Assembly: GCA_035945435.1 (NCBI GenBank)
Contig: DASZAF010000031.1
Span: 17,913-81,912 of the forward strand
DNA from: Candidatus Saccharimonadales bacterium
GTDB lineage: Bacteria; Patescibacteriota; Saccharimonadia; Saccharimonadales; DASZAF01
DNA length: 64,000 bases
Reading direction: 5' to 3'
The translations under genes were made by a program, and so were the position numbers. The notes under the pieces are model-generated. The model saw nothing but the letters and a program-made list of their open reading frames with translations, searched no databases and had not been told where the DNA came from. This document shows positions 3,498 through 56,870 of this stretch, piece after piece. How positions within the stretch are numbered: the stretch's first letter is position 1; each line of letters begins with the position of its first letter.

Positions 3498-3502
3498 AAG
3501 GA

Positions 3503-4024
3503 GTGGTAGTGCCAAAACACAGTGCCGGAGTACTTTTATTTAGGCGTGTAGGTGGGAATGTTGAGGTATTACTTGCTCACCCAGGTGGTCCCTTCTGGGC
3601 GAAGAAGGATTCGGGTGTTTGGTCTATCCCAAAAGGTGAGTTTAGCGAAGACGAAGATCCGAAGCATGCCGCACAGCGTGAATTCATGGAAGAGATTGGC
3701 CATCAAGTCCCAGCTAAAGAGCTTATTGATATAGGCGAAATTAAGATGAGTAGCGGTAAGATCGTGACTGCATGGGCAGGCGAAGGCGATTTGGACCCGA
3801 ACATGCTCGTGAGCAATACTTTTAGCATGGAGTGGCCACCTCGCTCTGGAACGCAGCAAGAGTTTCCGGAAGTTGACAGGGCCAGATGGTTCACTCTCGT
3901 TACAGCCAAGAATAAAATCCTCAAGGCTCAGGTACCGTTCATCGAAAATCTAGCCACTCATCTTTCAGTTGATATTAATAAACCAGAAAAGGATGACCCT
4001 TCTTCTCAGCTGAGCCTTCTGTAG
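3503..4024 (+). CDS. NUDIX hydrolase
   Basis: Nudix box GEFSEDEDPKHAAQREFMEEIG. GTG start preceded by an AGGAG SD. Confidence 0.85.
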   Translation: MVVPKHSAGVLLFRRVGGNVEVLLAHPGGPFWAKKDSGVWSIPKGEFSEDEDPKHAAQREFMEEIGHQVPAKELIDIGEIKMSSGKIVTAWAGEGDLDPNMLVSNTFSMEWPPRSGTQQEFPEVDRARWFTLVTAKNKILKAQVPFIENLATHLSVDINKPEKDDPSSQLSLL

Positions 4025-5947: not shown

Positions 5948-6958
5948 ATGTCGACAGTGGTTAAGGGGGTCAAAATAGTTGTTATTGGAGGAGGGACTGG
6001 CAGCTTTGTATTACTCGACTCTCTGAAGAACTACGTTCAAGACTTGGCCGCGCTCGTTAATATGGCCGATGATGGCGGCTCAACCGGCGTTTTGCGTGAC
6101 GAACTGGGGGTTTTACCGCCGGGAGATGTTCGACAGTGCCTAGTGGCTCTCTCAAAGTCATCGTTAACAATGCGTAATCTCTTTAACTATCGCTTTCCGA
6201 CGGGAAGTTTCGCGGAAGGACATTCATTTGGCAACCTGTTTTTGACAGCAGTGGAGAAGATGACTGACAACTTTGCTGAAGCAGTCGATCTTGCTAGCCA
6301 GGTCTTAAATATTACAGGTCAGGTTATTCCGATTACTAACGAAAAAGTAAAACTTGTCATGAAGTTAGGCGATGGGAGAGTGGTTAAAGGGCAATCCGCG
6401 GTTGATGAAACTGACTTTAAAGGAAGCGTTAAACCTAGCATGTCACTTGAACCACATGCCGAGATAAACCCGGCTGCCAGGAAAGCAATACTAGAGGCTG
6501 GGATGGTCGTCTTCGCTCCAGGTGACCTCTATGGTTCGCTCGCACCTGCACTTGTCGTCAAAGGCGTGGCCGAAGCAGTCAAAGAGTCTCGTGCCAAGAA
6601 AGTCTATGTTTCTAACCTCGTGACACAAGCTGGTCAGACCGACGGCTTTATGGTGCACGATTTTGCCGACGAGATTGAGCGCTTTCTCGGTGTCGGAGAC
6701 GTCCTCGACTATGTCTTATATAACACCCAAAAGCCAAGTCCCGAACGGCTACATGCCTATCTAAGGGAAGGTGAGTCGGCAGTTGGATCGGACAAAGTAG
6801 CTTTCGGCGAGGCGCGCTATAAGCCGGTCGGGGCCAAACTGGTCTCGTCTGCCACACCACACCAGAACCCAAGTGATAAGCTGAGGCGTTCCTTTATCCG
6901 ACACAACGGTGACAGAACAGCGCGGCAGCTTCTGAGGATTTACTTAAATGATGACTAG
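5948..6958 (+). CDS. YvcK/CofD-like protein (UPF0052, gluconeogenesis factor family)
   Basis: VVIGGGTGSFVLL...NMADDGGSTGVLRDELGVLPPGDVRQCLVAL is the family signature. Confidence 0.85.
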   Translation: MSTVVKGVKIVVIGGGTGSFVLLDSLKNYVQDLAALVNMADDGGSTGVLRDELGVLPPGDVRQCLVALSKSSLTMRNLFNYRFPTGSFAEGHSFGNLFLTAVEKMTDNFAEAVDLASQVLNITGQVIPITNEKVKLVMKLGDGRVVKGQSAVDETDFKGSVKPSMSLEPHAEINPAARKAILEAGMVVFAPGDLYGSLAPALVVKGVAEAVKESRAKKVYVSNLVTQAGQTDGFMVHDFADEIERFLGVGDVLDYVLYNTQKPSPERLHAYLREGESAVGSDKVAFGEARYKPVGAKLVSSATPHQNPSDKLRRSFIRHNGDRTARQLLRIYLNDD

Positions 6959-9538: not shown

Positions 9539-9617
9539 AGATATACACAGTCCTGGTAAGATCAGTGTCGTCTCTCTTATAGTTTGTCCACTAATCTGTG
9601 GATAACTCACTGCTTGA

Positions 9618-9697
9618 GTGGGTATAGGTGTGGGTAAAGTACTTGTCAGTGGGTAAACGTGGGTAGTAGACTAGATCCAGTGGGTAAACGTGGGTAG
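9618..9697 (+). promoter_or_regulatory. Array of six (G)TGGGTA boxes upstream of mraZ (putative MraZ operator)
   Basis: GTGGGTA at 9618, 9649, 9659, 9680, 9690 and TGGGTA at 9631. The 20-mer CAGTGGGTAAACGTGGGTAG is exactly duplicated (9647-9666, 9678-9697). Boxes within a pair are 10 bp apart. Confidence 0.6.
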
Positions 9698-9760: not shown

Positions 9761-10162
9761 ATGACCACCGTGGACTACTTCGAAAGGAAACTCGACGACA
9801 AACGTCGGCTGACCATTCCAGCCGAACTCAGAGGAGAGTTTGCCAAAGGAGTGGTGATTACGCGTGGATTTCGAAACGACTCCATCCACATCTATTCAAA
9901 AGAGGTGTGGGAGGAGCAAGTCGAACCTCAACTGAAGGGATCTATCCTCGATGAGCGGGTTGCGGATTTGAATGTACAGTTTCGAATGGGCAAGAGTGAG
10001 TCATCACTCGACGTAAAACAGGGGCGCATCGTCATCGAGCAGCACCTCTTGGATTACGCAGGCATCACCGGTGACGTAGTAGCAGTGAGAGGCGGCTCGT
10101 TCTGGATCATCATGTCCAAAACGAAAAGCCAAACGTTTCGCCCAAAGCACATTAACAAATAG
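9761..10162 (+). CDS. mraZ: Transcriptional regulator MraZ
   Basis: First gene of the dcw cluster. DDKRRLTIPAELR and a second SpoVT/AbrB-like half. TGGG-box array upstream. Confidence 0.85.
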   Translation: MTTVDYFERKLDDKRRLTIPAELRGEFAKGVVITRGFRNDSIHIYSKEVWEEQVEPQLKGSILDERVADLNVQFRMGKSESSLDVKQGRIVIEQHLLDYAGITGDVVAVRGGSFWIIMSKTKSQTFRPKHINK

Positions 10163-10458
10163 GGAATAATCGGCGACTCCGAGGTCAACTACCTGGCAGT
10201 CAGTGGACGGTCCGTGAACAGCCGTCAAAGTACGTGTTCAAGTACCTAAGATGTTTTTAAGAAAACACCTCCCAAAAAACTCCACCTCACACATAAGTCT
10301 CTCAAGTAATAACTTTTACAGTAATGGGTTATTAACAGAGAATCCGCAAGGATTCTCCTACCACAACAACTCCATTAGTATAGAGTTCCATTACAATACA
10401 AAAACAAAAACTATACACAAAAACAAAAAACACTGACGCCAGATAGGTGACCTCGAGT

Positions 10459-11370
10459 ATGAAAAATAACACACCACAGCAACTCCATCAGCCGGTCCTA
10501 CTTGAGCAGGTCATATCGCTTCTTGCCCCGAAGAAAGGTGAATCATACCTTGATTTGACGGCAGGTTACGGTGGGCATGCAGAGGCGGTCCTGGCCACTA
10601 CTGGAGAGCCTAAAGAGATTGTTCTTGTCGATCGTGACAATGATGCTATTGCCTCATTGTCTTCGTTCGCAAAACGTGGAGCGACTGTTATGCACTGCGA
10701 TTTTTTTAGTGCAGCTCAGAAACTCCATGAACAGGGTAGATCATTCGATATGATTCTCCTCGATCTCGGTGTGTCGTCACCACAGTTAGATAGAGCAGAG
10801 CGGGGCTTCAGCTTCAAGTATGCAGGTCCTCTGGATATGCGTATGGATGAGCGAGAGACCAAGACTGCTGCTGAACTGGTTAATCACGCCAGTGAAGCAG
10901 AGCTCGTGCAGATTCTCAGCCAGTTTGGTGAGGAACCAAGGGCACGAAGGGTCGTGAAAGCGATCATCGAAGCCAGGCCGATCCAAACGACAGATGAACT
11001 CGCCACAGTCATTGCTCAAACTATTCGTCGAGGGAAGAGTAAGATTCATCCAGCGACGCGCACCTTCCAAGCAATACGCATCGCCGTCAATCGAGAGCTC
11101 GAGCTACTTGAAGCGACACTCAAGCTGTTGCCAGAACTGCTGGCACCAGAGGGCAGAGTTGTTTTCATCAGCTTTCACAGCCTCGAAGATCGCTTAGTGA
11201 AACGGTTCCTACAAGATCATTCAGAGGGATACGAAGCCGACCTGAAGATCACGACCAAGAAACCGATTAGCGGTGCAACTGAAGACGTCCACAACCCGCG
11301 AGCCAGGAGTGCTAAACTCCGAGCCGCAGTGAAAATAAACATGAAAGGGGCACACATCTATGCGCATTAA
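10459..11370 (+). CDS. rsmH: 16S rRNA (cytosine1402-N4)-methyltransferase RsmH
   Basis: HQPVLLEQV...YLDLTAGYGGHAEAVL...LLDLGVSSPQLD...SFHSLEDRLVK. ATG at 10459 has an AGGTGA SD; the track start GTG 10447 lies inside that SD. Confidence 0.9.
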   Translation: MKNNTPQQLHQPVLLEQVISLLAPKKGESYLDLTAGYGGHAEAVLATTGEPKEIVLVDRDNDAIASLSSFAKRGATVMHCDFFSAAQKLHEQGRSFDMILLDLGVSSPQLDRAERGFSFKYAGPLDMRMDERETKTAAELVNHASEAELVQILSQFGEEPRARRVVKAIIEARPIQTTDELATVIAQTIRRGKSKIHPATRTFQAIRIAVNRELELLEATLKLLPELLAPEGRVVFISFHSLEDRLVKRFLQDHSEGYEADLKITTKKPISGATEDVHNPRARSAKLRAAVKINMKGAHIYAH

Positions 11371-18130: not shown

Positions 18131-18823
18131 TTAAGCTGCTTTTCTCGTGTGCGGGAACTGAGCTGCAGCCCGGGCTTCTACCTGGGGCAAGCTGCCTTGG
18201 AAGCCGACTCTACCGACTACCATTGGAGCGTCCCACTGTGTCGGGCCGGTCTTATAGCGGCTTGCTCTGACCTGAAATGCTTTCAGCTCACCGCTGTAGC
18301 GCGTATCGATACGCGCTACCTGGCTGGCTGCAACTGTTGCGAGATAGCCGCCGGCGAAGAAGCCGTATCGCTCGTTTTTACCTGAACCAATAATCAGTGG
18401 ATCCTGTACTTCTGCTGAGGCGGTTAGTTTGCCATCCGGGTTTTCGCCAGGTGTCTGGCTTGGCGTGAGTGGTGAGTACGGGTGAGTAGCGAACGGTGAG
18501 TCAACTAGTTGATATCTGGTGCCTCGAGCAAGCACAATCACCCCGTCTAGCGCAGCTTGAGTCGTAACATCTAGCGGAGCTTCGCCGCTAGCCTGTTCCA
18601 TCTTATGAGCCTGAGCTCCTGCCTGTTTAAAGACTTGTGTGTCGCCGATCGCTTTAACAACTGAGGGACCTACGCCAATTAGAACTGCAATGGCAAAGAG
18701 CCCAAGTCCACCAACACGTCTCCGACGGCGACGTACCTCTGGACTTGGTCCAGTGACAGGAGGAAGAGAGGTGGTACGGAGCCCTCTGGCTCTTTGTTTT
18801 CGCTGAGGTTCGCTTTCAGACAT
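18131..18823 (-). CDS. Hypothetical N-terminally anchored exported protein (230 aa)
   Basis: Arg-rich N-terminus, then TM GGLGLFAIAVLIGVG. No family recognised. Convergent with ftsQ across an 8-nt gap. Confidence 0.65.
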   Translation of the reverse strand: MSESEPQRKQRARGLRTTSLPPVTGPSPEVRRRRRRVGGLGLFAIAVLIGVGPSVVKAIGDTQVFKQAGAQAHKMEQASGEAPLDVTTQAALDGVIVLARGTRYQLVDSPFATHPYSPLTPSQTPGENPDGKLTASAEVQDPLIIGSGKNERYGFFAGGYLATVAASQVARIDTRYSGELKAFQVRASRYKTGPTQWDAPMVVGRVGFQGSLPQVEARAAAQFPHTRKAA

Positions 18824-18832
18824 ATTATGCCT

Positions 18833-18841
18833 ATATTAACA
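18833..18841 (-). promoter_or_regulatory. Extended -10 element (TGtTAATAT) 9 nt upstream of ATG 18823
   Basis: Read on the minus strand. No SD between the box and the ATG, which implies a near-leaderless mRNA. Confidence 0.4.
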
Positions 18842-19028
18842 TAAAACGATCTGTAATTCAAGATCCTACCCCTGTTGGAAGTGCTTTAAATCGATGGTCT
18901 CGTATCTTAGAACAGGGGATGCCACAGAGGGTAGAGCAATGCAATGCCCTATAACCGTGGGCAGGCTGCCAGCGTTGAGTTAACGTCTAGTTGCCATCTG
19001 TCCACAGGAGGAGGCTACCCTCACCTAC

Positions 19029-19047
19029 AGTTCTAAATATGTTCTTT
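19029..19047. repeat. 19-nt direct repeat, left copy (AGTTCTAAATATGTTCTTT)
   Basis: 18 of 19 identical to 19604-19622. Confidence 0.7.
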
Positions 19048-19101
19048 AAAACTAGCACAAACTATTTCGAGTAAAAAAATATATGAAAATAGGAAAGTCG
19101 T

Positions 19102-19180
19102 GAAAAGTCAAATATACATATTGCGCAAGGGTAGGGGGGAGAAGTCAAATTACCATAATCATACTGTGGAAAAGTCAAAT
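19102..19180. repeat. Three direct copies of a 12-mer, GA(A/G)AAGTCAAAT
   Basis: Copies at 19102-19113, 19139-19150 (1 mismatch) and 19169-19180. Start-to-start spacing is 37 and 30 bp. The reverse complement contains TTGACT. Confidence 0.7.
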
Positions 19181-19351
19181 GGATAGTCCTGAAATACAAC
19201 GGTGCATATATAGTAAGTAAAGATATAGAAGCCCTCGGTACAGCAGAATGATATAAGTACTGTGTAAGGTAGCGTATTAGATGAGTACTGGCTAATTTGG
19301 CAGTAGTTTCCCCCTACTCCGGGTGAGTAGGACGATATATCAACCATCTGC

Positions 19352-19429
19352 CGTGGATATCATTAGCGTCGTAAAAGATATATTGTACGACCTAAGATCA
19401 CACCCCCACATCCCGACTTGATATCCACG
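19352..19429. other. Long hairpin: 11-bp perfect inverted repeat with a nested 6-bp stem
   Basis: CGTGGATATCA (19352-62) pairs with TGATATCCACG (19419-29). Inner stem GTCGTA (19368-73) pairs with TACGAC (19386-91). Confidence 0.6.
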
Positions 19430-19603
19430 TCCAGCCGGTCTTTTTGTTATCATTGTCTTTTATTTTTTGTATGACCCTTCCCTCCCGCTGCCATTACTTC
19501 GCTTCTACTTGGCTCACTGTCACTTTTGCGCTACGAACACACGAAATTACTAGTGTTCTAATTCCGTATTATTTTTGGTAGAACAGAAACTCTCGATTCC
19601 TAG

Positions 19604-19622
19604 AGTTCTATATATGTTCTTT
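19604..19622. repeat. 19-nt direct repeat, right copy (AGTTCTATATATGTTCTTT)
   Basis: Abuts the stop codon (19623-19625) of the 448-aa gene. Confidence 0.7.
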
Positions 19623-20969
19623 CTACTTCACGTACGGAACGTGACTAATTGGAGATTGGTTCTGACGAAGGTGCTTAGGTTGCGGAGGGCGTTCAAAGAG
19701 CTGTTGCCACTCTGTTGGCACTCTATAGACTGGCCCGAGGTTTAGTGGGGGCTTCTTGTGCTTCGGCGGGCCCATAACATACTCTGCAAAACGATCTGAA
19801 ATGTACTTACCGAACTGGTTGCCCTCATAGATGAGCAGTGCTGATAACGGCAACGTAAACGCCAGCGCAACGCTAGCTAATCTGACGGCTGCCTTAACGG
19901 GGTCTCGACGTTCAAGCTGGTCAAACGCTTTCTCGCCGCGTTGAAGCTGTCGGCCGATGGGTCCACGCGCAATGAGCGGTGGTTTTCTTTGTCCAACACG
20001 GGCCAATACTTTTGCGCGATGTCGTTGCACGAGGCTCATGGCCCCCCACTCTGCCCTCGTGTAGCCCGCTCTAAGTCCGTCTAACTCGATGCGAGGAGAC
20101 CCACCATCGAGCAGCCTTAGTTGTTCTCGTAGCTCAGCTTGTTCGGCAAAATATGCTGCATCATCCACCTCCATGGCATCGTATTGCGCATTGACCTCTG
20201 CTGCTCCTTCGATACCTTCATCCTCGCTATAGCGCCACCTAAATCCAAATGGGTTAAGTGTTCGACTCATATTGTGTATAAACGCGTTATTACTAGCCAC
20301 CGTTTGGGCAATGCGTTCGCTCTGACGTGCTTCGTGTAAGCGCCTGATGCTATGCTCAGCGAGGAGCAGTTCGGCATCCATGCTTTCTTCTGCAGATTCG
20401 GCCAATTCACCCAATCTCGCGGCTCTATCAAGAGTATGTGCGGCCTCCTGTCGGGCCTCTACGGCTGCCTCAAGAACTGAGTCGGCTTCAGCAAACGCCT
20501 GTGGAGCGTTCCTTTCTACAAACGGTATAAGAGGTATTCGCTCTCCTCGGCGTTCGATTTCATCTAGCCGGGCTTTTTCTGCGATCTCTTTACCGACGAT
20601 ATAGTCCCATTCCTGCTCGGGGTTTTGTTGATCGATCATCTGGTACCTAAGGAGGACTCGCTGTAGGTGCATGGGTATCTGGAGATAGAGACGGAAGTTC
20701 ATCTTGCCGATTAGCCGATCTTCGATCCAGTGAGCTCTATCCCTCTTCCCCAAGAGATAATCACTCCTGCCAATGACCTGTCTACCATCGGGTTCAAGGA
20801 ATGTTGGGAATAAAAGATTCTCTATTGCGGCTTCGACTCGAGCAAGTCTATATGGACCATCCTCCAGATCGATCACCCGTGTTTCGTTAAGGTCATCTGG
20901 GTGGTTCGTCGACCTCTCGGAGAGCATCTCGACTGTGACTGGGGGCACCTCCTCCATAAGAAGGGTCAT
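19623..20969 (-). CDS. Hypothetical coiled-coil protein with a C-terminal TM anchor (448 aa)
   Basis: Start reassigned to MTLLMEEV (ATG 20969), which overlaps the upstream stop as ATGA. The longer 19623..21131 ORF runs into the upstream gene. TM segment AAVRLASVALAFTLPLSALLIY lies near the C-terminus. Confidence 0.65.
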   Translation of the reverse strand: MTLLMEEVPPVTVEMLSERSTNHPDDLNETRVIDLEDGPYRLARVEAAIENLLFPTFLEPDGRQVIGRSDYLLGKRDRAHWIEDRLIGKMNFRLYLQIPMHLQRVLLRYQMIDQQNPEQEWDYIVGKEIAEKARLDEIERRGERIPLIPFVERNAPQAFAEADSVLEAAVEARQEAAHTLDRAARLGELAESAEESMDAELLLAEHSIRRLHEARQSERIAQTVASNNAFIHNMSRTLNPFGFRWRYSEDEGIEGAAEVNAQYDAMEVDDAAYFAEQAELREQLRLLDGGSPRIELDGLRAGYTRAEWGAMSLVQRHRAKVLARVGQRKPPLIARGPIGRQLQRGEKAFDQLERRDPVKAAVRLASVALAFTLPLSALLIYEGNQFGKYISDRFAEYVMGPPKHKKPPLNLGPVYRVPTEWQQLFERPPQPKHLRQNQSPISHVPYVK

Positions 20970-21631
20970 CTTCGGATCTCCGTTGAACCGTGTGTCCTTG
21001 CGTGGTGGTGGGGGTGTACTTGACCGCTGACGGCAGGCTGCGGGTTGCCCTCTCTCCCCTGGACATAGAAACCAAGAGCCTCGACGCCTATAACGGACAG
21101 GGCTACTGTCGCGATCGTCACTCCAACCCACAGTCTTGATCTGTTTTCAAAGTCAAACGTGTAGTCGGACCACTCCCCTATCTTGTCGTATAGGCGATGT
21201 GCCCATTTCCCGATCCGTCCAAAACGTACTTTAGCTTCAGATGCCTTCTCTGCTGCGACTATAAGATCTCCCCTGTTTATCCGCAGAGCGGGTTCTTCTA
21301 GGGGGATCTCAGAGGCCAGTAAGTCTAAATCGTATACATCTAATCGGTCTCCTATCATACCGTACCGTCGAAGCGACCTCTGTTGGTCATCTGTTAATCT
21401 GGCAAGCAGATGCCCGGGGGTGTTGCTCTGTATACTAAGCGCGAATGCTCTCTTGCTATGTGCATAATCTAGCTGACTACGTTGTCCCGGGAGGGTCGGC
21501 ATACCTGAAAGTATTCCAGGAATGTCGAACAGGGCGCGTGTAAGTGTGCGCAATTTCAATTGGAGATCATCCCATGCATGTATTTCCGAAGAAGCCTGTC
21601 CTACCTCGCACGAGGGTGCATACGTGTCCAT
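20966..21631 (-). CDS. Hypothetical protein with a C-terminal TM anchor (221 aa)
   Basis: TM segment LWVGVTIATVALSVIGVEALGFYV near the C-terminus, then a His-rich tail. Translationally coupled to the downstream gene. Confidence 0.6.
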   Translation of the reverse strand: MDTYAPSCEVGQASSEIHAWDDLQLKLRTLTRALFDIPGILSGMPTLPGQRSQLDYAHSKRAFALSIQSNTPGHLLARLTDDQQRSLRRYGMIGDRLDVYDLDLLASEIPLEEPALRINRGDLIVAAEKASEAKVRFGRIGKWAHRLYDKIGEWSDYTFDFENRSRLWVGVTIATVALSVIGVEALGFYVQGREGNPQPAVSGQVHPHHHARTHGSTEIRR

Positions 21632-21673
21632 ATGTCAACTACATTTTCATAATGTGGTTGTGCTGTCAATGTT

Positions 21674-21710
21674 ACAAAAACAGAACCCCTAGGCTTCGAG
21701 GGTTCTGTTT
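21674..21710 (-). terminator. Rho-independent terminator after the 189-aa ORFan
   Basis: 9-bp stem ACAGAACCC/GGGTTCTGT (21680-88/21700-08). A T-run (TTTTTG) follows on the minus strand. Confidence 0.6.
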
Positions 21711-21729
21711 CAGTCTTTTGGCTTGTATT

Positions 21730-22299
21730 TTACCTTACAGCAGCACCGCGCTTTGGCAAACCTGCAGATGTTAACCCGCTGACACGGGCAAGTTCACTGG
21801 CGTCCTGCATGTGCGCACCATGGCGACGCCTCACCTGCTCACTTAGAGGGACCTCAGCGTCAGGATCTGGGGCATTAGGGTCCTTCTCTCCTACCTCGAA
21901 CCAGTCACGGAGTGGTGCGCCATCAGCAGCGCGTACTCGTTCGCGAGCGACGAGCACTGCAGCTTCCTGTTGGGTGCGGATTTTGGGACGAAGAGCGTGC
22001 TCTATAATTCTCCTAAGAGCAACCGAGCGCGTGAATAGATGTTCTGCGGGAATAGTCAGGAGAGCCCTTACGCCAATCTCGCGCTGTACCGCAAGGTCAC
22101 CCGAGCTATGCGCCAAAGCATAGAATTCAGCCTCCGTCATCGCAGGCGGAAGGTCAGTTGCCATGCCATGCCATGCAGCTACGTTAAACGGTGATGGCTC
22201 GCAATATGCAGCTCGCAGTGTCGGAGATTCAGCTGCTAGCAGCTCTGGTAAGCCTTCGACTCTCTGATAATCTTGGCTATCTAATTTCGCGTGTCTCAT
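21730..22299 (-). CDS. Hypothetical soluble protein (189 aa)
   Basis: Long ORF bracketed by its own promoter (22330-22358) and terminator (21674-21710). No family recognised. Confidence 0.6.
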   Translation of the reverse strand: MRHAKLDSQDYQRVEGLPELLAAESPTLRAAYCEPSPFNVAAWHGMATDLPPAMTEAEFYALAHSSGDLAVQREIGVRALLTIPAEHLFTRSVALRRIIEHALRPKIRTQQEAAVLVARERVRAADGAPLRDWFEVGEKDPNAPDPDAEVPLSEQVRRRHGAHMQDASELARVSGLTSAGLPKRGAAVR

Positions 22300-22329
22300 A
22301 AACGATACAATATTCTACTTATAATGTAT

Positions 22330-22358
22330 ATATTAGCATATTAGTTAATCAGTGTCAA
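22330..22358 (-). promoter_or_regulatory. Sigma70-type promoter of the 189-aa ORFan
   Basis: Minus strand TTGACA-N17-TAATAT with a TGc extended -10. Confidence 0.6.
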
Positions 22359-22586
22359 TACAATGGCAGGTTACACCGCTGACGCGTTTCTCAATTGGCT
22401 CACGCAATCTCGACAAAATCCTGCATTTGGTCTCCCGCCTAGTGCTTTCGCTACCGCAATTGCTCCACCTACCGTATATATCTGCCCCATAACGCAGTCG
22501 TTGAGGCAGTGATGTACGTCGTGGCCTTCTCGTGTATCTTCGTTAGGGGCCCCTTCGTCAACCTCCTGAGGAAAGCGACTTCCCCT

Positions 22587-23027
22587 TCAAGACGCGCGAA
22601 CAGGCGTTTCTGAACTAATCAGCACCTCAACTTTATGTCGGATAATATCTCGTGCTTTTGCTGTAAGCTCATAGCTAATACCCTTGGGGTCATCGACGTC
22701 CCAGTAGAGATAGTTGGGGGCGTGTATAAGCCAGTCTGGGGCGTACTGCTCGGTAACCATGCTGACTACGAGGTCGTATTTATCTAACATCTCTTGGGTT
22801 AACTGTGTGCTCTTATTGTTTCGTACGTCTATTCCAATTTCATCCATCACGTCGATAGTGAATGCTCGGTCTGGCAGCTCTCTCTTCCGCTCTAGCAGTG
22901 TCTGGCCAGGTTTCTGAACTGCGGTACCGGCAGAGTCGGCATCATGAGTGTGGGCCAACTTGTTGTAGAGAGCGGCAGCCATCTGGCTACGGGCAGTATT
23001 GCCAAGGCAGACGAATAAGACTCTCAT
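22587..23027 (-). CDS. Low-molecular-weight protein tyrosine phosphatase
   Basis: CX5R(S) P-loop VCLGNTARS at residues 6-14 and DP loop DVDDPKG. Only one Cys in the protein, so it is not a thioredoxin-coupled ArsC. Confidence 0.8.
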   Translation of the reverse strand: MRVLFVCLGNTARSQMAAALYNKLAHTHDADSAGTAVQKPGQTLLERKRELPDRAFTIDVMDEIGIDVRNNKSTQLTQEMLDKYDLVVSMVTEQYAPDWLIHAPNYLYWDVDDPKGISYELTAKARDIIRHKVEVLISSETPVRAS

Positions 23028-23109
23028 CCTTGACAGTATACTCCCCCAATGAGTGAAAGCTCATTCGTATTAACAGAGTAGAGCGTTATATACACACATA
23101 ATGTATATA

Positions 23110-23138
23110 TTGACATAAGAATAATAAAGTTATAGAAT
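23110..23138 (+). promoter_or_regulatory. Sigma70-type promoter of the 491-aa ORFan
   Basis: TTGACA-N17-TAGAAT. The -10 ends 9 nt before ATG 23148. Confidence 0.6.
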
Positions 23139-23147
23139 ATATAAACC

Positions 23148-24623
23148 ATGTGTGCGGCAGGTAGAAATCGTAACCATGTTGTTATGGCTGGCGCCCCGTT
23201 CACCAAAGATATTCTTCACGATGAAGTTGGTAACGGTGGCGAGAGCTTCGCGCGCCTCAGATTAGTCGTGGGGACTATTGGTGCTGGCGCAGTTGCCGTA
23301 GCGCTAGATGGCATGACCGAAGAAGGACAGGCCGATCGCCGTGAGCTCTTATATGGCCCAGACCCCAATCTTTATGCCAACTGGGCTATTAGGGCGGCTT
23401 CCGCCGCCCCTGATATCCGTCTGGCACAGGCCACCTCTGAGGGTGAGTTGTCTTTCGACTTACACGAGGTCCGCTACAGGCTTGGTAGGAATTCACTTCT
23501 AGCTGCTATAAGCCTGGAGCGTGACCTCTTACTTGAGAGAGCAACTCGTGAACTTGATCCTGAAACCCGTGGCACGATGGGGCCGATCGAGAACTGGTTA
23601 ACCGGTACGACCATCTTTGATAGGGCTGAGGATGGTAGGATCGGTAACCTACCTGACGATCTAGCCGCTGGTCTGCCAGTGGAATTTAAGGGTCTACGTC
23701 GAAGCCAACTTGCGTGGCAGCTGCTCCAGGCCCGCTCGCACCAGCGGGTGCAGACCGCAAACGGAGACTTCATCGGATGCCAGACTTCACGGCCAGATGG
23801 TCTCCGCTTGGTCACTCAAGAGGGAGATCTAGAGGCGGGTTACGTCGCGGCTGCATTCCACGATCTTCTTAAGATGGGTATCGGCTTCGATCCCGATCGC
23901 CTTGCGTCGGAGTATATCCCCATCCTACGACCCGAAAACCCCAAGGAGCCCATGGGCCTTATACTCGCCGAGAGCAAGACTGCTCTCGAGGTCGCCATAC
24001 AGGCTGCAGGCTTTATCCTAGACGGCAGAATTGCTCCTCAGTTAGACGAGTTAAAGATGTGGACCGGTCTTGGGAGGAAAGCTGAGGGTTTGCGCAGGCT
24101 GATCCGAAAACACGATAACAATTTAACCGACATGTTCGATAAGGCTCAGAATGGCGAAGTGGCCTATAAACCGGCCAATGATTACATCGATAAGCGTGTC
24201 AACGACCTTGCTGCAACTGCCTGGTCGCAAGCAGCTTGGTGGGACCTTGTCATACGCGAGCACCGCCGGCTCTACGGCCGAATGGCCGAGAACGCCTTCA
24301 GACCGAGCGATATTATTGAAAAGATGGGCTTCTCGCTTATCGTGGCCAAATTCGATGTCAGTCATCATGGGGATGGAGTCAGGTTGAGCGACGAGGAGAT
24401 GCAACTGCCGCTCGGTCACGACTATGAAACCGATCCTCCTCTCGAATTTGTAAGGGTACCAACGCACGTTCCAATCACCGTTCGCAGCATACATCCGAAG
24501 ACGTTGACAGACAGGTGGGCTACTTGGGAGGCGACTGCCGATCAGAAGCTCAGGGAGAAAGAGGCGGCCATGGCAAAAGCTGCCAGGTTCGTCGTTAGGT
24601 TACGGACTGCGAAAGCGTCGTAA
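23148..24623 (+). CDS. Hypothetical protein (491 aa) with an N-terminal hydrophobic segment
   Basis: Promoter TTGACA-N17-TAGAAT ends 9 nt before ATG 23148. Hydrophobic LRLVVGTIGAGAVAVAL. No family recognised. An alternative start is M13 (23184). Confidence 0.6.
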   Translation: MCAAGRNRNHVVMAGAPFTKDILHDEVGNGGESFARLRLVVGTIGAGAVAVALDGMTEEGQADRRELLYGPDPNLYANWAIRAASAAPDIRLAQATSEGELSFDLHEVRYRLGRNSLLAAISLERDLLLERATRELDPETRGTMGPIENWLTGTTIFDRAEDGRIGNLPDDLAAGLPVEFKGLRRSQLAWQLLQARSHQRVQTANGDFIGCQTSRPDGLRLVTQEGDLEAGYVAAAFHDLLKMGIGFDPDRLASEYIPILRPENPKEPMGLILAESKTALEVAIQAAGFILDGRIAPQLDELKMWTGLGRKAEGLRRLIRKHDNNLTDMFDKAQNGEVAYKPANDYIDKRVNDLAATAWSQAAWWDLVIREHRRLYGRMAENAFRPSDIIEKMGFSLIVAKFDVSHHGDGVRLSDEEMQLPLGHDYETDPPLEFVRVPTHVPITVRSIHPKTLTDRWATWEATADQKLREKEAAMAKAARFVVRLRTAKAS

Positions 24624-24686
24624 GTTGCTATCTATCTAGGGCTTCTCTATAATTCAAATCACAAGCACTTAAAACAGATAGCAACC

Positions 24687-25217
24687 GTGGTCTCCAAGAA
24701 GAGAAACTCCTCCCGAAACAGTATCAAGACCCTCAAGACTTATCTGTTATCTCATACAGTACTGCTCCCCGTTGTCTTTCTAGTCATGTTTGGGCTAACG
24801 GTAGCCTATATTTTAACGCTCGACAACACACCAACGGCTGCTGACTGTGTTGCTCATCAATATAACGACTCATCATACCAGCAGACCCACTACTCTGTAT
24901 GCGTGAAAGATGTCCAGGGGATCCTCGACGGCGTTACAAGTGACCTGAAGAACAGTTACGGTGGCAATAGATATAGCGGCACGCAGATTCCGGCAAACGG
25001 ATACTTCAACGCAAAAACGGCGACTGAGATCGAATACTTCCAAAGCAGTCCACTCTTCGCCAAATATGCTGGTGCCGCCAATGGTGCGGTCGGGCCCCAG
25101 ACATGGGGTGCGCTCTGCTTTGCTGCCTATAACTACATTGCCGTTGGCAATTTCGGTTCAAACGATTTCTATTCCTTGGTGAGCTGCCATAACCATAGCG
25201 GTTCACCTGAGCACTGA
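24687..25217 (+). CDS. N-anchored small protein with a peptidoglycan-binding (PG_binding_1-like) motif
   Basis: TM LLSHTVLLPVVFLVMFGLTVAYIL, then CVKDVQGIL...NGYFNAKTATEIEYFQ...NGAVGPQTWGAL, resembling the PGBD repeat pattern. GTG start. Confidence 0.6.
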   Translation: MVSKKRNSSRNSIKTLKTYLLSHTVLLPVVFLVMFGLTVAYILTLDNTPTAADCVAHQYNDSSYQQTHYSVCVKDVQGILDGVTSDLKNSYGGNRYSGTQIPANGYFNAKTATEIEYFQSSPLFAKYAGAANGAVGPQTWGALCFAAYNYIAVGNFGSNDFYSLVSCHNHSGSPEH

Positions 25218-25220
25218 GAT

Positions 25221-27818
25221 CTAGCGTCTGATCTGGAAGACCATCTCTTGGTCGTCGCCATCTCCCACCCTGTGCTGTGGCATCTGACGGTGTTGCCAGG
25301 AAGCCTCGACGGTACGAGTCTTCTTCTGAGCTGGGCGTTGTCGAGTGGTTGACTGGGCCGCTTGTGAGACCCGTCTGCCGACTGATATCTCTCTCGAGTG
25401 TAACTGGGGTCGTTTCGTATAGTCCTCTGTCAGCCGCCTCTGGGTGCTCGCTTCAACCTCTTTACGGGACCTACCATAGGCAACGCGGGCCCGTTCCATG
25501 ATATGGGCTAGATAGTCCTGGTGAATGGGTGGCAGCGTTAACACCCGTCCTGAAAATGCACTTGCCCGCTGACCATCAATAAACATCGAGACGACGAAGT
25601 GACGTTCCGGCAGTTCGGTTAACTCGCTTTCGTCGAAGTTCAGACTAAAATACTGCTTCAGCAAGCTACTGTCGTTACCGAAGAGTTTGAAGGCAATGAC
25701 GGTGTTAAAGTTACCGAAAACGGCTTCGCGAAAGACGGGCGCGACCTGCGATGGACGTGGGTTGCTGATCGTCATGTATGTACCATGAACCGCTCCTTCG
25801 GCCAGGATCTCAGCGAACGAGTCGGTGATGAAATATTGAAAGTCGTCGATGTAAACGTAGAATGGTCTCGGCATAATGCCATGGCTGTTTGCGAACCTCG
25901 ACATACTGGCGATATGCATATGAGCGATTAGGAGAGCTCCAAGAGTTGAAGCGTTCTCCTCGCCGAGCCAGTTGACGGCAAGATTGGCAGCGAAGATCTG
26001 CCCACCGTCCATGATCCGTCTGAAGTTGAAGGAGGTTTTCTCCTGGCTGACGATATTGCGGATCATCGGGTTGGAGGTAAATGCCCCCATCCTACTGATG
26101 ATCGGACCGATAGCGTCGCTTCTAAACTGGCTATCCCACGTAACAAAGTCTGTCTTCCAGAAGTTGACGACAATAGGATCGGTGACGTACTCGAGAACGT
26201 GAACCCGGAACTTCTCGTCGAATAGCATGCGACTGACGTCCAGCAGAGTGCCTCTGGGGTACTCGAGAAGTGCCAGAATCGTACAGCGAAGTATGTACTC
26301 GAGCTGTGGCTGCCAGTGGTCTTTAAGGAGCGTCTTCTTAAAGACGGCGATCAGCTCGGTTGCCATCTGGCTTTTCAGGGCCGGTTCGGTGAGATCGAAG
26401 GGGTTGAAGGCTATCGGGAATTCACTGTCTGCCACATTAAAGTAGACGACCTCGTTGATTCTTGAAGATGGGACATACCGCAGACTACTATCGACCATTC
26501 CCCCATTGGGGTCGAAGATGGCAAAGCCTTGGTTGTGGTAGAGATCTGAGAGCGCCAGAAGTTCGAGAAGCTTGGTCTTCCCCCCGCCTTTCAGGCCGGT
26601 CACGTAGATATGGTGCATTCGGTCGGATCTGTTGACGCCAAACTGAATGTCGTGCGTCTGCGAGCGTGTGATGCCGAAGAGACTGACGTGACCACCAGAT
26701 GCCTCCTCATCGTTCACTTGGGGCACTGAAGACGGCAGCTTGACTGCTTTCATATCCGCCCAGCTGATATTGGCACTGTCGACCTCTGAATATGGCAGAT
26801 GGAAGAGAGTGGCCAGCTCCTCGCTATTAAGTAAGAAGCCTCTATCTAGAAAGAAACGCGCCCGATAGGCCGCTAGCGCCTCTATATCGCCTGTAAGCGC
26901 CTTCTGACTGAAACCGTTACCATCGAGACGGTTGAACTGTTTGAACGCACCTATGACGTCCTGGAGGCGCTGTCTGGCCATATGATGATGGCGTCCAACG
27001 TAGAGTATCCGTATCTTGACCTGAAAAGCAGGTTTGGAGCTCTTCTGCTCTGCTTCAGCGATTCGGGTCTTGTCTTTCTCGGATGGCTCAGACGGTCCCT
27101 TGTGCTGGGGTGGCTCCCAGAGCGTTTTGAGCATACTCATCAGGAAGTTCATCACCTCCTCCCCACCAACGTGGGTCTCAGAGCGCAGATGATGGATGTA
27201 CTTGGCGCTTCTGCGTTCCAGGGTGTCCCCGACCGGTTTAACGAGGGTCTGTATCCAAACCTCCTCATCCTTGTCGATCTTGGATAGCGCGTTATGGAGG
27301 GCATTTAAAGGATCCTCCTCAAAACTACCGTAAGTCTTGATCGGCAGAGCGTCGTTGTGTATAAGGTTGAGTTCTGCAACTCGTACGGTCTGACCGTTCG
27401 TGCTCCTGCTGGCGTAGTCCTCATCCTGGAGGCGTAATGTTGCCTCTGGATATGCAGCTCCGATCTGGCTTTCGACGAAGCTCTGCAGATGGGCTGGGGT
27501 CCAGATCAGATAGCGAAGTTGGTCACCAACAGAGACAATTTCGAAGCTGAGGTGGTCCTGAGTACCTCCGTCGGCAACCAGCTCACGAGTGGTTCGGAGC
27601 ATGTTATGGAGGTTGGCGAAGAGCTCTTCGGCAGCTGGTCCTTCTCGCCCGTGACTTTTAGGTACCTCGAGAGCCAGCAGAACATGTTCAGTATTACTGG
27701 CGTGTTTGATTCGTCGATGGTTCTGTAGGGTCAAAAAGAGCAGGACAACAACAACTGGTAGCCAGACCCACCAGGTGCTAAGAACGCGCAGTAGCCAGTC
27801 CAGAACTTCATGTATCAT
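25221..27818 (-). CDS. VirD4/TraD/TraG-like (T4SS coupling-protein-like) P-loop ATPase, membrane anchored
   Basis: N-terminal TM WWVWLPVVVVLLFLTL. Walker A GLKGGGKT, motifs IFDPNGG and FNPFD, Walker B-like FYVYIDDFQYF. GGAGAG SD upstream of the ATG. Confidence 0.7.
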   Translation of the reverse strand: MIHEVLDWLLRVLSTWWVWLPVVVVLLFLTLQNHRRIKHASNTEHVLLALEVPKSHGREGPAAEELFANLHNMLRTTRELVADGGTQDHLSFEIVSVGDQLRYLIWTPAHLQSFVESQIGAAYPEATLRLQDEDYASRSTNGQTVRVAELNLIHNDALPIKTYGSFEEDPLNALHNALSKIDKDEEVWIQTLVKPVGDTLERRSAKYIHHLRSETHVGGEEVMNFLMSMLKTLWEPPQHKGPSEPSEKDKTRIAEAEQKSSKPAFQVKIRILYVGRHHHMARQRLQDVIGAFKQFNRLDGNGFSQKALTGDIEALAAYRARFFLDRGFLLNSEELATLFHLPYSEVDSANISWADMKAVKLPSSVPQVNDEEASGGHVSLFGITRSQTHDIQFGVNRSDRMHHIYVTGLKGGGKTKLLELLALSDLYHNQGFAIFDPNGGMVDSSLRYVPSSRINEVVYFNVADSEFPIAFNPFDLTEPALKSQMATELIAVFKKTLLKDHWQPQLEYILRCTILALLEYPRGTLLDVSRMLFDEKFRVHVLEYVTDPIVVNFWKTDFVTWDSQFRSDAIGPIISRMGAFTSNPMIRNIVSQEKTSFNFRRIMDGGQIFAANLAVNWLGEENASTLGALLIAHMHIASMSRFANSHGIMPRPFYVYIDDFQYFITDSFAEILAEGAVHGTYMTISNPRPSQVAPVFREAVFGNFNTVIAFKLFGNDSSLLKQYFSLNFDESELTELPERHFVVSMFIDGQRASAFSGRVLTLPPIHQDYLAHIMERARVAYGRSRKEVEASTQRRLTEDYTKRPQLHSREISVGRRVSQAAQSTTRQRPAQKKTRTVEASWQHRQMPQHRVGDGDDQEMVFQIRR

Positions 27819-32350: not shown

Positions 32351-32479
32351 TCTACGCATTACTTACACATCTATAATGCAATCGTATCTCAGTATTACAA
32401 GTGACATTCGACTTCTGTAAAAGTGCTTAACCTTACTATATTCAATATTGAATTTGTCTAATAAATATTCAAATAGTTA

Positions 32480-32508
32480 TTGACATAAATAGAACACAGT
32501 GTTAATAT
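32480..32508 (+). promoter_or_regulatory. Sigma70-type promoter of the candidate sRNA/leader
   Basis: TTGACA-N17-TAATAT with a TGt extended -10. The palindrome AACACAGTGTT (32493-32503) lies in the spacer. Confidence 0.6.
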
Positions 32509-32514
32509 ACACGC

Positions 32515-32787
32515 GGTAAGCACGATTTAAGTTGCTTATGCACCTTATACCCCCCAATTCTAACTTATGTTAGATTGCATGCAACGTGCGCTCGACAAAG
32601 TATCCCTCCACTTATCTTGCGCGGTAGGTACCTCTTAATTGAGATGCCAAACATGCGTTGCTTGCAAACTAACCCCTTTAACCAAACGATCCTATTATAT
32701 CGAGTATGAGGTGGTCGTCATGCCCTACATGGGTGGGTTAAAGGGTCTAGAGTGCCCAGTAGTGCCCACCCCTACTGGGCACTTTTG
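32515..32787 (+). ncRNA. Candidate ~270-nt structured RNA or terminator-controlled leader (unclassified)
   Basis: Bounded by the promoter at 32480-32508 and the terminator at 32751-32787. Internal stems 32517-22/32533-38, 32560-64/32569-73 and 32576-86/32656-66 (10 of 11 bp). No match to the tmRNA, RNase P, SRP or T-box motifs I can recall. Confidence 0.4.
32751..32787 (+). terminator. Rho-independent terminator
   Basis: Perfect 12-bp stem AGTGCCCAGTAG/CTACTGGGCACT, 9-nt loop, then TTTTGATTT. Confidence 0.65.
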
Positions 32788-32843
32788 ATTTCTGACCTCA
32801 GCTGATTCTCACCAGTCGGCTATATAATGGATCCTTGTTGCAT

Positions 32844-41312: not shown

Positions 41313-41319
41313 TACACAT

Positions 41320-41328
41320 ACTATACCA
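41320..41328 (-). promoter_or_regulatory. Extended -10 (TGgTATAGT) 7 nt upstream of ATG 41312
   Basis: Read on the minus strand; no SD. Leaderless-type arrangement. Confidence 0.45.
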
Positions 41329-41373
41329 TCGTTTTACTAAAAGCGCACGGTGATGAAGGCGTATCTATCGATA

Positions 41374-41382
41374 TGACATAAT
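41374..41382 (+). promoter_or_regulatory. Extended -10 (TGaCATAAT) 7 nt upstream of ATG 41390
   Basis: No SD. Leaderless-type arrangement, divergent from the element at 41320-41328. Confidence 0.45.
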
Positions 41383-41389
41383 AGTCAGC

Positions 41390-41656
41390 ATGTGCAGGAG
41401 TATCAAACCGCTTTTCAACTTTGACCCACCACCCACTGAAGATGAGGTCCACGACGCAGCGCTACAATTTGTGCGTAAACTGTCTGGGTTTCGTAGCCCT
41501 TCCAAGGTAAACGAGCGTATTTTTAATCAAACTGTCGATGACATATCACAGACGACCAGCCACCTACTGAGCCATCTCAAGACCGATGCCAAACCTAAAA
41601 ATCGCGATGTGGAGACTGCTAAAAAACGAGCGCGGTACGCCACCCCAAATAATTGA
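41390..41656 (+). CDS. DUF2277-family small protein
   Basis: MCRSIKPLFNFDPPPTEDEVHDAALQFVRKLSGF matches my recollection of the DUF2277 N-terminus. TGaCATAAT lies 7 nt upstream of the ATG. Confidence 0.7.
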   Translation: MCRSIKPLFNFDPPPTEDEVHDAALQFVRKLSGFRSPSKVNERIFNQTVDDISQTTSHLLSHLKTDAKPKNRDVETAKKRARYATPNN

Positions 41657-41689
41657 AGCTGCAAACTTCTCGGTAACTTAGCAGCCATC

Positions 41690-41718
41690 AAAAAAGACCC
41701 TTCTTTATCAGAAGAGTC
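41690..41718 (-). terminator. Rho-independent terminator (minus-strand orientation)
   Basis: Stem 41696-41704/41710-41718 (8 of 9 bp), followed on the minus strand by TTTTTTG. Confidence 0.5.
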
Positions 41719-41856
41719 CCGTTGGTGAACCACCTCATGTTGAATTGGAACCGTATCTTGCCTGAGATTAGTGAATGGTATGAGATATTAAGACGGTTAC
41801 CTCAGGAAATACACATCCCCGTGAGAGATGGATCCGGCTTTGACCTGTAAAATATG

Positions 41857-56410: not shown

Positions 56411-56774
56411 CGTTGTAGAGAATGGTGCCGACTTTCTTACGTGGCTTTCGGGCAGCTAATTTGTCCTGCATGCGGTTGTAACTTTCAGATGACGTAATAA
56501 TGCCGATGTACTTCCGCCAGCGGACCAGCAGATAGAGGCACACGAAGTAGAGTCCAAAAAGAGCCACCCATAGGAATCTAAAAAGTGTCTGTGAGTGAGC
56601 CAGAGATGGGGAGATCAAAGTCAGACCGAGAAAGCTGGCCGGGTCAAGATTATCAGTATGACCCCCGAAGATACCGGAAATGAAGACCAGTGCTAAATGA
56701 AAAGATCCGCCGACAAATACGGTAAGGATTAGGGCCTGGAGAGCTCGCCTCCCGAAGCTGAACATGGATCCCAT
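56337..56774 (-). CDS. Small polytopic membrane protein (145 aa)
   Basis: Three hydrophobic helices. The C-terminal tail overlaps the convergent GT2 gene by 74 nt. Confidence 0.5.
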   Translation of the reverse strand: MGSMFSFGRRALQALILTVFVGGSFHLALVFISGIFGGHTDNLDPASFLGLTLISPSLAHSQTLFRFLWVALFGLYFVCLYLLVRWRKYIGIITSSESYNRMQDKLAARKPRKKVGTILYNASLNVDNKNYRPSARRSSLSDEEI

Positions 56775-56870
56775 TATACCGTGCCAATCTATCTTCGCCT
56801 AACAGTGATCTGTTTATAAAACTCAGTCACCTTATTGTGTTTGTCGCAACTATGTATTATTGTCATCGAT

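Follow-up and report, generated by a model that had tools for sequence, protein, structure and literature searches.

The stretch analysed here comprises 64,000 nucleotides of contig DASZAF010000031.1 from a Candidatus Saccharimonadales bacterium and is referred to as the window. Between a 230-aa gene starting at 18823 and an upstream gene ending at 19623, both encoded on the minus strand, lies a gene-free gap of 799 bp (18824-19622). It is the largest true gap of the window, in which the median intergenic distance is 59 bp; larger values in the list of intergenic distances are a product of greedy open reading frame (ORF) choice. A first-pass annotation had selected this gap for its length and its repeats, had considered most of it unnecessary as promoter or 5' untranslated region, and had proposed one or more noncoding RNAs (ncRNAs), a regulatory hub or the scar of a mobile element. 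The unusual length is real. The larger part of the gap is a conserved module (19024-19622, 599 bp), which is probably the unoccupied dif-type locus of this Saccharimonadales chromosome, a recombination site of the Xer type in a variant form with conserved accessory boxes.

To the left of the gap, MraY, FtsW, MurG and an FtsQ-like gene of the division and cell wall (dcw) cluster are encoded on the plus strand up to 18122. Over 1.6 kb that include the gap, the window agrees at 100% identity with an independent public assembly (Logan SRR12347822, L002); the gap sequence is therefore not an assembly artefact of one data set. The window was aligned with six Saccharimonadales relatives (seven lineages). 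Only one of these, a 'Candidatus Saccharimonadales' metagenome-assembled genome (L001) with a 53% identical MurG, was present in the species-level genome collection; the five others were reached through FtsQ-like homologues. Identity of the FtsQ-like protein to that of the window is 40-45% in the soil-clade relatives, 31% in L020 and 23% in the low-GC clade. A metagenome scan with the FtsQ-like alignment yielded only a 25%-identical locus, which lacks the module. The conservation of the gap, on which the first-pass annotation had made its case depend, is evident: all six relatives have the FtsQ-like gene, a gene-free gap of 640-750 bp and then a convergent gene for a DUF8128/TrwB-like ATPase, the counterpart of 25221-27818 in the window. 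Genes converge on the module in both clades although the right-hand genes differ, for ~18 kb to its left and ~23 kb to its right. As the gap of the relatives always lies between convergent genes, no flanking promoter is needed in it, in agreement with the earlier view of its function. The relatives' gaps are collinear with 19024-19622 only. Judged by this collinearity, the gap is two things, namely a lineage-specific leader (18824-19023), to which we return below, and the conserved module (19024-19622). The earlier treatment of the gap as a unit therefore applies to the module and not to the leftmost 200 bp.

The most conserved element of the module is an imperfect palindrome at 19368-19391 that had not been singled out before. 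It consists of a left arm (GTCGTAAAA, 19368-19376), a centre (GATATA, 19377-19382) and a right arm (TTGTACGAC, 19383-19391). This corresponds to a 9+6+9 architecture, or to 11+6+11 with the flanking positions (19366-19393), where the arms match at 7-8 of 11 positions; the 28-bp core thus has the architecture of a dif site. Its consensus in the seven-lineage alignment is GTCGTAAAA-KATAYA-TTGTRCGAC, followed by a conserved GTAAGATC extension, and in the window the conservation continues beyond the right arm up to 19400 (CTAAGATCA). Mean identity of the 24-mer core across the lineages is 0.90, compared with 0.26-0.34 for the spacers of the module. Variation is confined to two central positions, one position of the right arm and one symmetric outer pair, with one lineage showing a symmetric change at both outer positions. 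The remote low-GC clade also has the module, and its core is one base off that of the window despite the only 23% identical neighbour protein. A single base likewise distinguishes the window core from the site that is occupied in relatives by integrase-less inoviruses and a mini-element. The core occurs once in the 64-kb window and likewise once in each related locus that is unoccupied. Since the 24-bp site is near-invariant across lineages with 23-45% identical neighbours, including seven element-free loci, a host function is implied. In this genome only, the core is enclosed by an 11-bp perfect inverted repeat (CGTGGATATCA / TGATATCCACG; 19352-19362 / 19419-19429).

The module is framed by two copies of a GTTC-N7-GTTC box. 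These are the flanking direct repeats of the first-pass annotation, which had given their length as 19 nt; they are in fact 24 nt long and identical at 22 of 24 positions (19024-19047, 19599-19622), and the 19-mer pattern has two matches compared with 0.02 expected. The box cores are located at 19030-19044 and 19605-19619, and the right box abuts the stop codon of the orphan 448-aa gene. GTTC and TGTTCT of the left box are invariant in all seven lineages. Boxes are found 334-414 nt left and 201-267 nt right of the core in 7/7 lineages and are rare elsewhere. The right box of the window is a near copy (22/24) of the left one, unlike in the relatives, and a decayed original box is found just inside it. 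The latter region comprises the GAACAC-N12-GTGTTC structure (19535-19558), present as described earlier, and after it an inner and an outer right box in decayed form (GTGTTCTAATTCC..GTATTATTTTTGGTA, 19553-19580); 19535-19580 as a whole aligns with the relatives' conserved TTGTTC and GTTC-N7-GTTC boxes at +201 to +267. Across host, phage and mini-element sequences, a GTTC-N7-GTTY box occurs within 1-450 nt right of the site, at distances of 200-380 nt, in 25 of 28 distinct site contexts, and 48 of the 70 boxes in 272 kb adjoin a site. The box sequences of host and phages are 92% identical over up to 26 nt. Mobile elements have a box of their own, about as far from their site as the host box is from the core; we therefore infer that the boxes are candidate accessory or boundary sites, bound by a protein and linked to recombination or to element replication. 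A LexA-type operator was also considered for GTTC-N7-GTTC and rejected: only three matches are present in the 64 kb, two of them in the gap, so that the motif is no regulon-wide operator here.

The behaviour of the site in relatives is documented by elements inserted at it. A 22-nt degenerate core pattern matched 17 IMG/VR contigs, where ~0.1 would be expected by chance on our own rough estimate, which was not computed by a tool. On the host side, the longer contigs carry the MurG C-terminus and the FtsQ-like gene, after which come a GTTC box, a left module that is rich in A+T and contains AAGTCAAAT motifs, and the full site. Beyond this site lie a filamentous prophage of 5.1-5.9 kb, a hybrid site and then host DNA. 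The prophages encode a Zot-like ATPase, a G2P-type rolling-circle Rep and small coat-like ORFs. No recombinase or integrase was found among the prophage ORFs, which matched Zot-like proteins, rolling-circle Rep (G2P), DUF2726 or nothing. The hybrid site is composed of a degenerate left arm (e.g. CACAAAAAA, GTCCGTTCC or TTCCTACTT) joined to GATATATTGTGCGAC and was seen in at least eight loci. Different phage types are joined to the same host flank exactly at the site.

One low-GC locus is represented by three alleles with an identical FtsQ-like protein. L051 is empty, L053 contains an additional 1.0 kb, and L052 contains 5.4 kb in addition to the 1.0 kb. The flanks are 98.5-100% identical, and the sole sequence common to the junctions is GATATATTGTGCGACGCTTGA. 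The 1.0-kb element (L053 5850-6839, L052 13857-14846) is a candidate satellite of the filamentous phages. It lies between an intact and a hybrid site, has a GTTC box of its own and encodes only a 99-aa protein without family match. The L052 allele has the layout of L053 with a 5.4-kb inovirus inserted at its full site. After every insertion, the FtsQ side retains an intact site, and the other side has a hybrid site made up of a degenerate left arm from the element and the shared centre and right arm. As read from these alleles, the elements integrate serially and site-specifically, without an integrase of their own and with regeneration of an intact site, which is the behaviour of mobile elements that exploit Xer for integration (IMEXs) at dif. 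The features of IMEXs, namely integrase-less elements, intact and hybrid site borders, and empty as well as occupied alleles, are thus found in the relatives. The window core is bordered on both sides by the conserved host module, and no phage genes are adjacent to it; the site is empty here. In a published survey, the dif-like sites of phages typically have a degenerate XerD arm (PMC3025954).

Several further observations concern the elements and the locus in relatives. After the site and a strong sigma-70-like promoter, every filamentous prophage starts with a conserved gene of 67-78 aa without family match (e.g. L024 2163-2399, L052 8524-8760, L020 1451-1654), followed by the GTTC box. This unit from site to box is exchanged between phages and host remnants, and the product of the gene could be a single-stranded DNA-binding protein or a recombination activator. 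The core is also found between genes in two tailed-phage genomes, one of them a complete circular siphovirus, namely L025 (IMG/VR, 43.5 kb; 6223-6246, minus strand) and L057 (MW202497.1; locus positions 3502-3525). In the siphovirus, the core reads GTCGTACAA-CATATA-TTGTGCGAC. The tailed-phage sites have a GTTC box on the left and not on the right, and no integrase was seen in the examined stretch. Three assemblies of low-GC relatives (L050, L054 and L056) end inside the module, just past the FtsQ-like gene. These contig ends fit a heterogeneity of the population, in which empty and occupied alleles break the assemblies.

The left half of the module contains most of the remaining conserved blocks. 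An A+T-rich tract (19073-19125) includes the first of three 12-mers (19102-19113); its motif AAGTCAAAT reads as a -35-like TTGACT on the minus strand. At the position of this tract, AAAGTCAAATA is kept in the soil clade and in low-GC relatives. A G-run (GGGTAGGGGGGAG) and the second 12-mer (19139-19150) follow on the plus strand (19129-19150), and a G-rich block followed by GTGAAAAGT is kept in 7/7 lineages. The 17-mer CTGTGGAAAAGTCAAAT (19164-19180) combines a DnaA-box-like 9-mer (TTTTCCACA, minus strand, 19165-19173) with the third 12-mer (19169-19180). It has the consensus CTGTGGA(A/T)AAGTCAAAT and a mean pairwise identity of 0.89. A perfect DnaA-box sequence (TGTGGATAA) is present in four of the seven lineages, and the DnaA-like motif of the 17-mer is not universal among low-GC relatives. 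The 12-mers GA(A/G)AAGTCAAAT at 19102, 19139 and 19169 had been noted in the first-pass annotation. They are clustered, and no match with 0-1 mismatch is found elsewhere in the 64 kb. That annotation had taken the repeats to be meaningful, and this is borne out, since the flanking repeats are the conserved boxes and two of the 12-mers are positionally conserved AAGTCAAAT motifs. The 17-mer was also considered as a phage motif (CTGTGGAWAAGTCAAAT) and rejected as such, as its 21 matches in viral contigs, about the number expected by chance, are mutually unrelated and without site or boxes.

Between the 17-mer and the core lies a variable spacer (19181-19333) with many indels and a mean pairwise identity of 0.26. 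It is overlapped by the ORF at 19159-19347 on the minus strand, which had been regarded as spurious; the ORF exists, has no Pfam match and has no counterpart in the relatives. No conserved small ORF in the module is common to the lineages. A conserved block ~20-35 nt left of the core (19334-19348, GATATATCAACCATC; consensus GTAT.ATTAAYCATC) reaches an identity of 0.70 beside the 0.26 of the spacer. Right of the core, a variable, pyrimidine-rich stretch with an identity of 0.34 is followed by one or two GTTC-N7-GTTY boxes. A C-rich block of the top strand (19475-19502; GGGAGGGAAGGG and GAAGTAATGG on the bottom strand) roughly mirrors the left G-run. Relatives likewise show a C-rich block and, on the bottom strand, a GTAG-type motif; the role of the block as a mirror of the G-run is a conjecture from the motif arrangement. 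The core separates a purine-rich left part of the top strand from a pyrimidine-rich right part in nearly all lineages, and the local GC skew flips at the core. The G-rich and C-rich motifs converging on the core could be candidate translocase-orienting sequences. Judged by its conservation, the left half (A+T tract, AAGTCAAAT motifs, G-run and DnaA-box-like 17-mer) is clearly under purifying selection.

Taken as a dif-type locus, the module would work as follows. One or two host Xer-family tyrosine recombinases, none of which was seen in the window, would bind the arms of the core and exchange strands at the edges of the GATATA centre. The exchange would resolve dimers of sister chromosomes and incidentally integrate elements. 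By analogy with the IMEXs of Vibrio, the left arm, which is the degenerate one in the elements, would be the XerD-like side. Similarity to E. coli dif does not tell the XerC arm from the XerD arm, as the forward and reverse orientations score alike, so that the arm assignment rests only on the arm that is degenerate in the elements. Two functions of the boxes are conceivable. They may bind an accessory protein that shapes the recombination synapse, or they may be origin or termination sites of the phage Rep, which would allow rolling-circle production and loss of elements from box to box. Tandem arrays of CTX-phi, which reportedly give rise to a rolling-circle-type production, are a parallel to the second option. 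The orientation of the boxes differs among phage groups, which argues against a simple nick-site role.

A chromosomal dif site is about 28 bp long, has two ~11-bp arms around a centre of 6-8 bp, occurs once per chromosome in the terminus region, at the shift point of the GC skew, has a cognate Xer recombinase and resolves chromosome dimers in dependence on Xer and usually on FtsK. Several observations weigh against an assignment of the module to this class. Identity of the core to the dif sites of E. coli and B. subtilis is only 14-18/28, compared with 19/28 between those two. The single-copy status is established for 64 kb only. A search by motif regex only (tyrosine-recombinase box II/III) gave no Xer-type recombinase gene, either in the 64-kb window, all frames included, or in the Saccharimonadales loci. 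Bulk GC skew provides no terminus position, as it does not switch at the site and is positive on both sides in the seven lineages. Third-position skew (GC3/AT3) follows the coding strand (C3>G3, T3>A3) at whatever position in the whole window, and skew is therefore uninformative for the placement of origin and terminus. Most of the conserved left half goes beyond what is known to take part in Xer recombination, and canonical chromosomal dif sites are not known to require flanks of this kind. Three site contexts, namely the two tailed-phage genomes and one contig end, have no right-hand box, and the orientation of the right-hand box differs between clades. A terminus, on the other hand, would look like the convergent gene orientation seen here, which extends for ~18 kb leftwards and ~23 kb rightwards.

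The points just listed can also be read differently. The core could be only a phage attachment site (attB) of a dedicated non-Xer recombinase, without a role in dimer resolution, and the module could be conserved for another reason. Such a reading would draw on the negative results for an Xer gene and for a terminus position, on the modest similarity to canonical dif and on the presence of the site in two tailed-phage genomes. We consider it unlikely, since the integrated elements encode no recombinase and their single degenerate arm, together with the 11-6-11 architecture, is the Xer/IMEX pattern. Moreover, the near-invariance of the core next to 23-45% identical neighbour proteins extends to the window and the six relatives, all without an element, and implies a host function.

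The boxes point to a further alternative, in which the whole unit from box to box is a fossil or satellite of filamentous phages, comparable to a non-coding miniphage, with an origin-like box at either end, the attachment site inside it and the host site incidental. The phages and the 1-kb mini-element carry the same box, and in the window the two boxes form direct repeats at a distance of 575 bp. On the right side of the low-GC loci, element-derived DNA gives way to host DNA exactly at a box, and the 'empty' right part there is a decayed homologue of the first gene unit of the phage. The left half, however, is vertically inherited at one position and collinear across clades with only 23% identity of the neighbour protein. 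It has no homology to phage DNA except for box matches, which argues for purifying selection at the level of the host and not for a decaying remnant. This origin of the complete unit is therefore rather improbable. For the right third alone, the analogy to the low-GC clade suggests that it may be element-derived and prone to turnover, possibly a decayed remnant, which fits its low conservation in the clade of the window. Of the earlier proposals, a regulatory hub or an element scar comes nearer than an ncRNA. The module is a vertically inherited DNA locus around a dif-type site, empty here, and the scar idea may hold for 19392-19598 but not for the rest.

An ncRNA gene in the gap, for instance a small RNA driven by the TTGACT (-35-like) motifs on the minus strand, is very unlikely. 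The repeated AAGTCAAAT provides such motifs, and in one low-GC relative (L021) TTGACT lies 17 nt from a perfect TATAAT on the minus strand at the position of the A+T tract. This perfect consensus is read in that one relative; in the window, the promoter-like site at TTGACT scores only 9/12. The convergent neighbours would leave room for an independent transcription unit, and a putative minus-strand promoter built on TTGACT is possible in the left half, as is a short unstructured transcript from the gap. However, no Rfam match was obtained in the gap at the gathering threshold in the window, where only two tRNAs elsewhere were reported, or in five related loci. At E<=10 the gap gave only a chance snoRNA match (E=1.1), and ARAGORN found nothing in it. 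RNAalifold on five slices of the seven-lineage alignment gave ~0 to -6 kcal/mol on both strands, with no consensus structure beyond the palindrome and no covariation. The proposed RNA thus has neither a covariance-model match nor a covarying structure. The conserved blocks are short islands amid indel-rich spacers of 26-34% identity, and the strongest of them is a DNA recombination junction. On this alignment, the module is a conserved non-coding DNA locus and not an RNA gene.

A replication origin, either oriC or a plasmid-like oriV, can be dismissed as highly improbable: TGTGGATAA or TGTGGAAAA is conserved in the 17-mer beside the A+T tract, the three direct 12-mers resemble iterons and the GTTC boxes, with their 11-bp phasing, recall the CtrA sites of the Caulobacter origin, but the gap has a single DnaA-box match (<=1 mismatch) without clustering instead of a DnaA-box cluster with an unwinding element, some low-GC relatives lack the DnaA-like motif, no dnaA, dnaN or gyrB motifs were found in the window, and the genes converge for ~18 kb and ~23 kb, as they do in every relative, which is the opposite of the diverging genes of an origin. 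Elsewhere in the window, two DnaA boxes, one perfect (TTATCCACA) and one with a single mismatch (TTACCCACA), are found 32 bp apart on the minus strand at 9597-9637. They are intergenic and located upstream of the first genes of the dcw cluster (9761-10162, 10447-11370).

The leader (18824-19023, minus strand) is the promoter region of the 230-aa gene and belongs to a lineage-specific insertion, because the gaps of the relatives are collinear with the module only; both the leader and the gene are missing from 6/6 relatives. An extended -10 element (TGTTAATAT, 18841-18833) is present 9 nt ahead of the ATG, as previously noted. The leader further contains a hairpin (18869-18918) and the first arm of an 8-bp pairing with CTACCCTC at 19015-19022. 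This pairing is real, and its first arm is located at 18927-18934, one base off the earlier placement. The RNA fold of the leader on the minus strand is marginal (z = -2.0) and unremarkable. Compared with the relatives, the window has extra genes on both sides, namely the 230-aa gene with its leader on the left and 19623-25217 on the right. The seven module-flanking genes in 18131-18823 and 19623-25217 are absent from 6/6 relatives and form an island that lies exactly outside both boxes. Pfam, NCBIfam and PHROGs gave almost nothing for these genes, the sole family match being a low-molecular-weight phosphatase, and the 448-aa protein has no homologue among the 5.8 billion proteins searched. 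Other unusually long stretches without a long ORF (424-544 bp) are located at 41313-41856, 32351-32834 and 56411-56834.

The module shares its basic design with known systems. Like the chromosomal dif/XerCD of E. coli and B. subtilis, difH/XerH, difSL/XerS and the archaeal dif/XerA, the core consists of 28 bp with inverted-repeat arms and a 6-bp centre, is strongly conserved throughout the lineage, is present in a single copy in the DNA examined and is located where genes converge. The near-palindromic arms resemble those of the single-recombinase systems (difH/XerH, difSL/XerS, archaeal dif/XerA). Unlike with XerS and XerH, no recombinase gene is found beside the site of the window. A distant member of the Candidate Phyla Radiation (CPR) with a 25% identical FtsQ-like protein (L003 3707-5652) encodes an XerC/XerD-like tyrosine recombinase directly after the FtsQ-like gene. 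The spacer in front of the recombinase gene is A+T-rich, measures 70 nt and contains GTTCAAAAATATTTATGAA, and this may be a recombinase-adjacent dif arrangement at the equivalent chromosomal position.

The elements in the relatives correspond to the arrays of CTX-phi, VGJ-phi and TLC-phi in Vibrio cholerae and to filamentous prophages of Xanthomonas and Yersinia, with which they share tandem integrase-less filamentous elements and a small satellite-like element. As in IMEXs of the Vibrio type, an intact site is regenerated on one side, the hybrid site has one degenerate arm, and empty and occupied alleles coexist. The hosts, in contrast, are CPR bacteria, and the site sequence is unrelated to dif1 of Vibrio. 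Every element also carries a GTTC-N7-GTTY box ~290-380 nt from its own site that matches the host box, and we know of no shared accessory motif of this kind in Vibrio IMEXs.

The ~580-bp conserved non-coding frame with its boxes sets the locus apart from a canonical chromosomal dif. To our knowledge, neither a box-bounded frame nor boxes shared between host and elements are features of known chromosomal dif loci, and the nearest analogy is found in the accessory sequences of cer and psi. These plasmid sites are Xer sites with accessory sequences bound by ArgR/PepA or ArcA/PepA. Both they and the module combine a core site of the Xer type with a few hundred bp of required-looking flanking DNA, and the 11-bp phasing of the directly repeated box (GTTC-N7-GTTC) has a parallel in the ArcA box (GTTA-N7-GTTA). 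The boxes differ from cer and psi in being located 200-500 bp from the core and on both sides, rather than within ~180 bp on one side; the locus, moreover, is chromosomal. Similar GTTC repeats are found in the (+) origin of f1/M13, which is served by a gpII-type Rep. The left box of the window, TGTTCTTTAAAAC, resembles the f1 nick region GTTCTTTAATAG, and the elements encode a Rep of the G2P family. Unlike in the f1/M13 origin, the orientation of the box relative to the phage genes varies by group, and the host keeps its boxes without a Rep gene.

A more far-reaching model can be put forward tentatively. The dif site of the Saccharimonadia might work only with GTTC-N7-GTTY boxes that are occupied by a putative tandem-binding protein in the manner of cer and psi, and phages and satellites would have copied core and box together. 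The box would then determine the places of element gain, of replication out of the chromosome and of loss by box-to-box deletion. This would explain the boundaries between element and host that fall exactly at boxes.

No description of a saccharibacterial dif site was found in the searchable literature; genomes of oral TM7 are known to carry prophages detected with an inovirus detector (PMC7739484). If the assignment is true, Saccharibacteria, a major lineage of the CPR with an almost unstudied chromosome biology, would have in this module their first defined dif-type site and hotspot of phage integration. It would explain the assembly breaks at this locus in these genomes. A 24-nt probe would find junctions between prophage and host and thereby link filamentous phages to their CPR hosts. 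For cultivable, transformable Saccharibacteria, the site would offer a natural, conserved docking site for the insertion of DNA. Finally, the ~600-bp frame with boxes that are mimicked by mobile elements suggests that Xer recombination or the replication of IMEXs may be organised differently in this lineage than in the models from Proteobacteria and Firmicutes.

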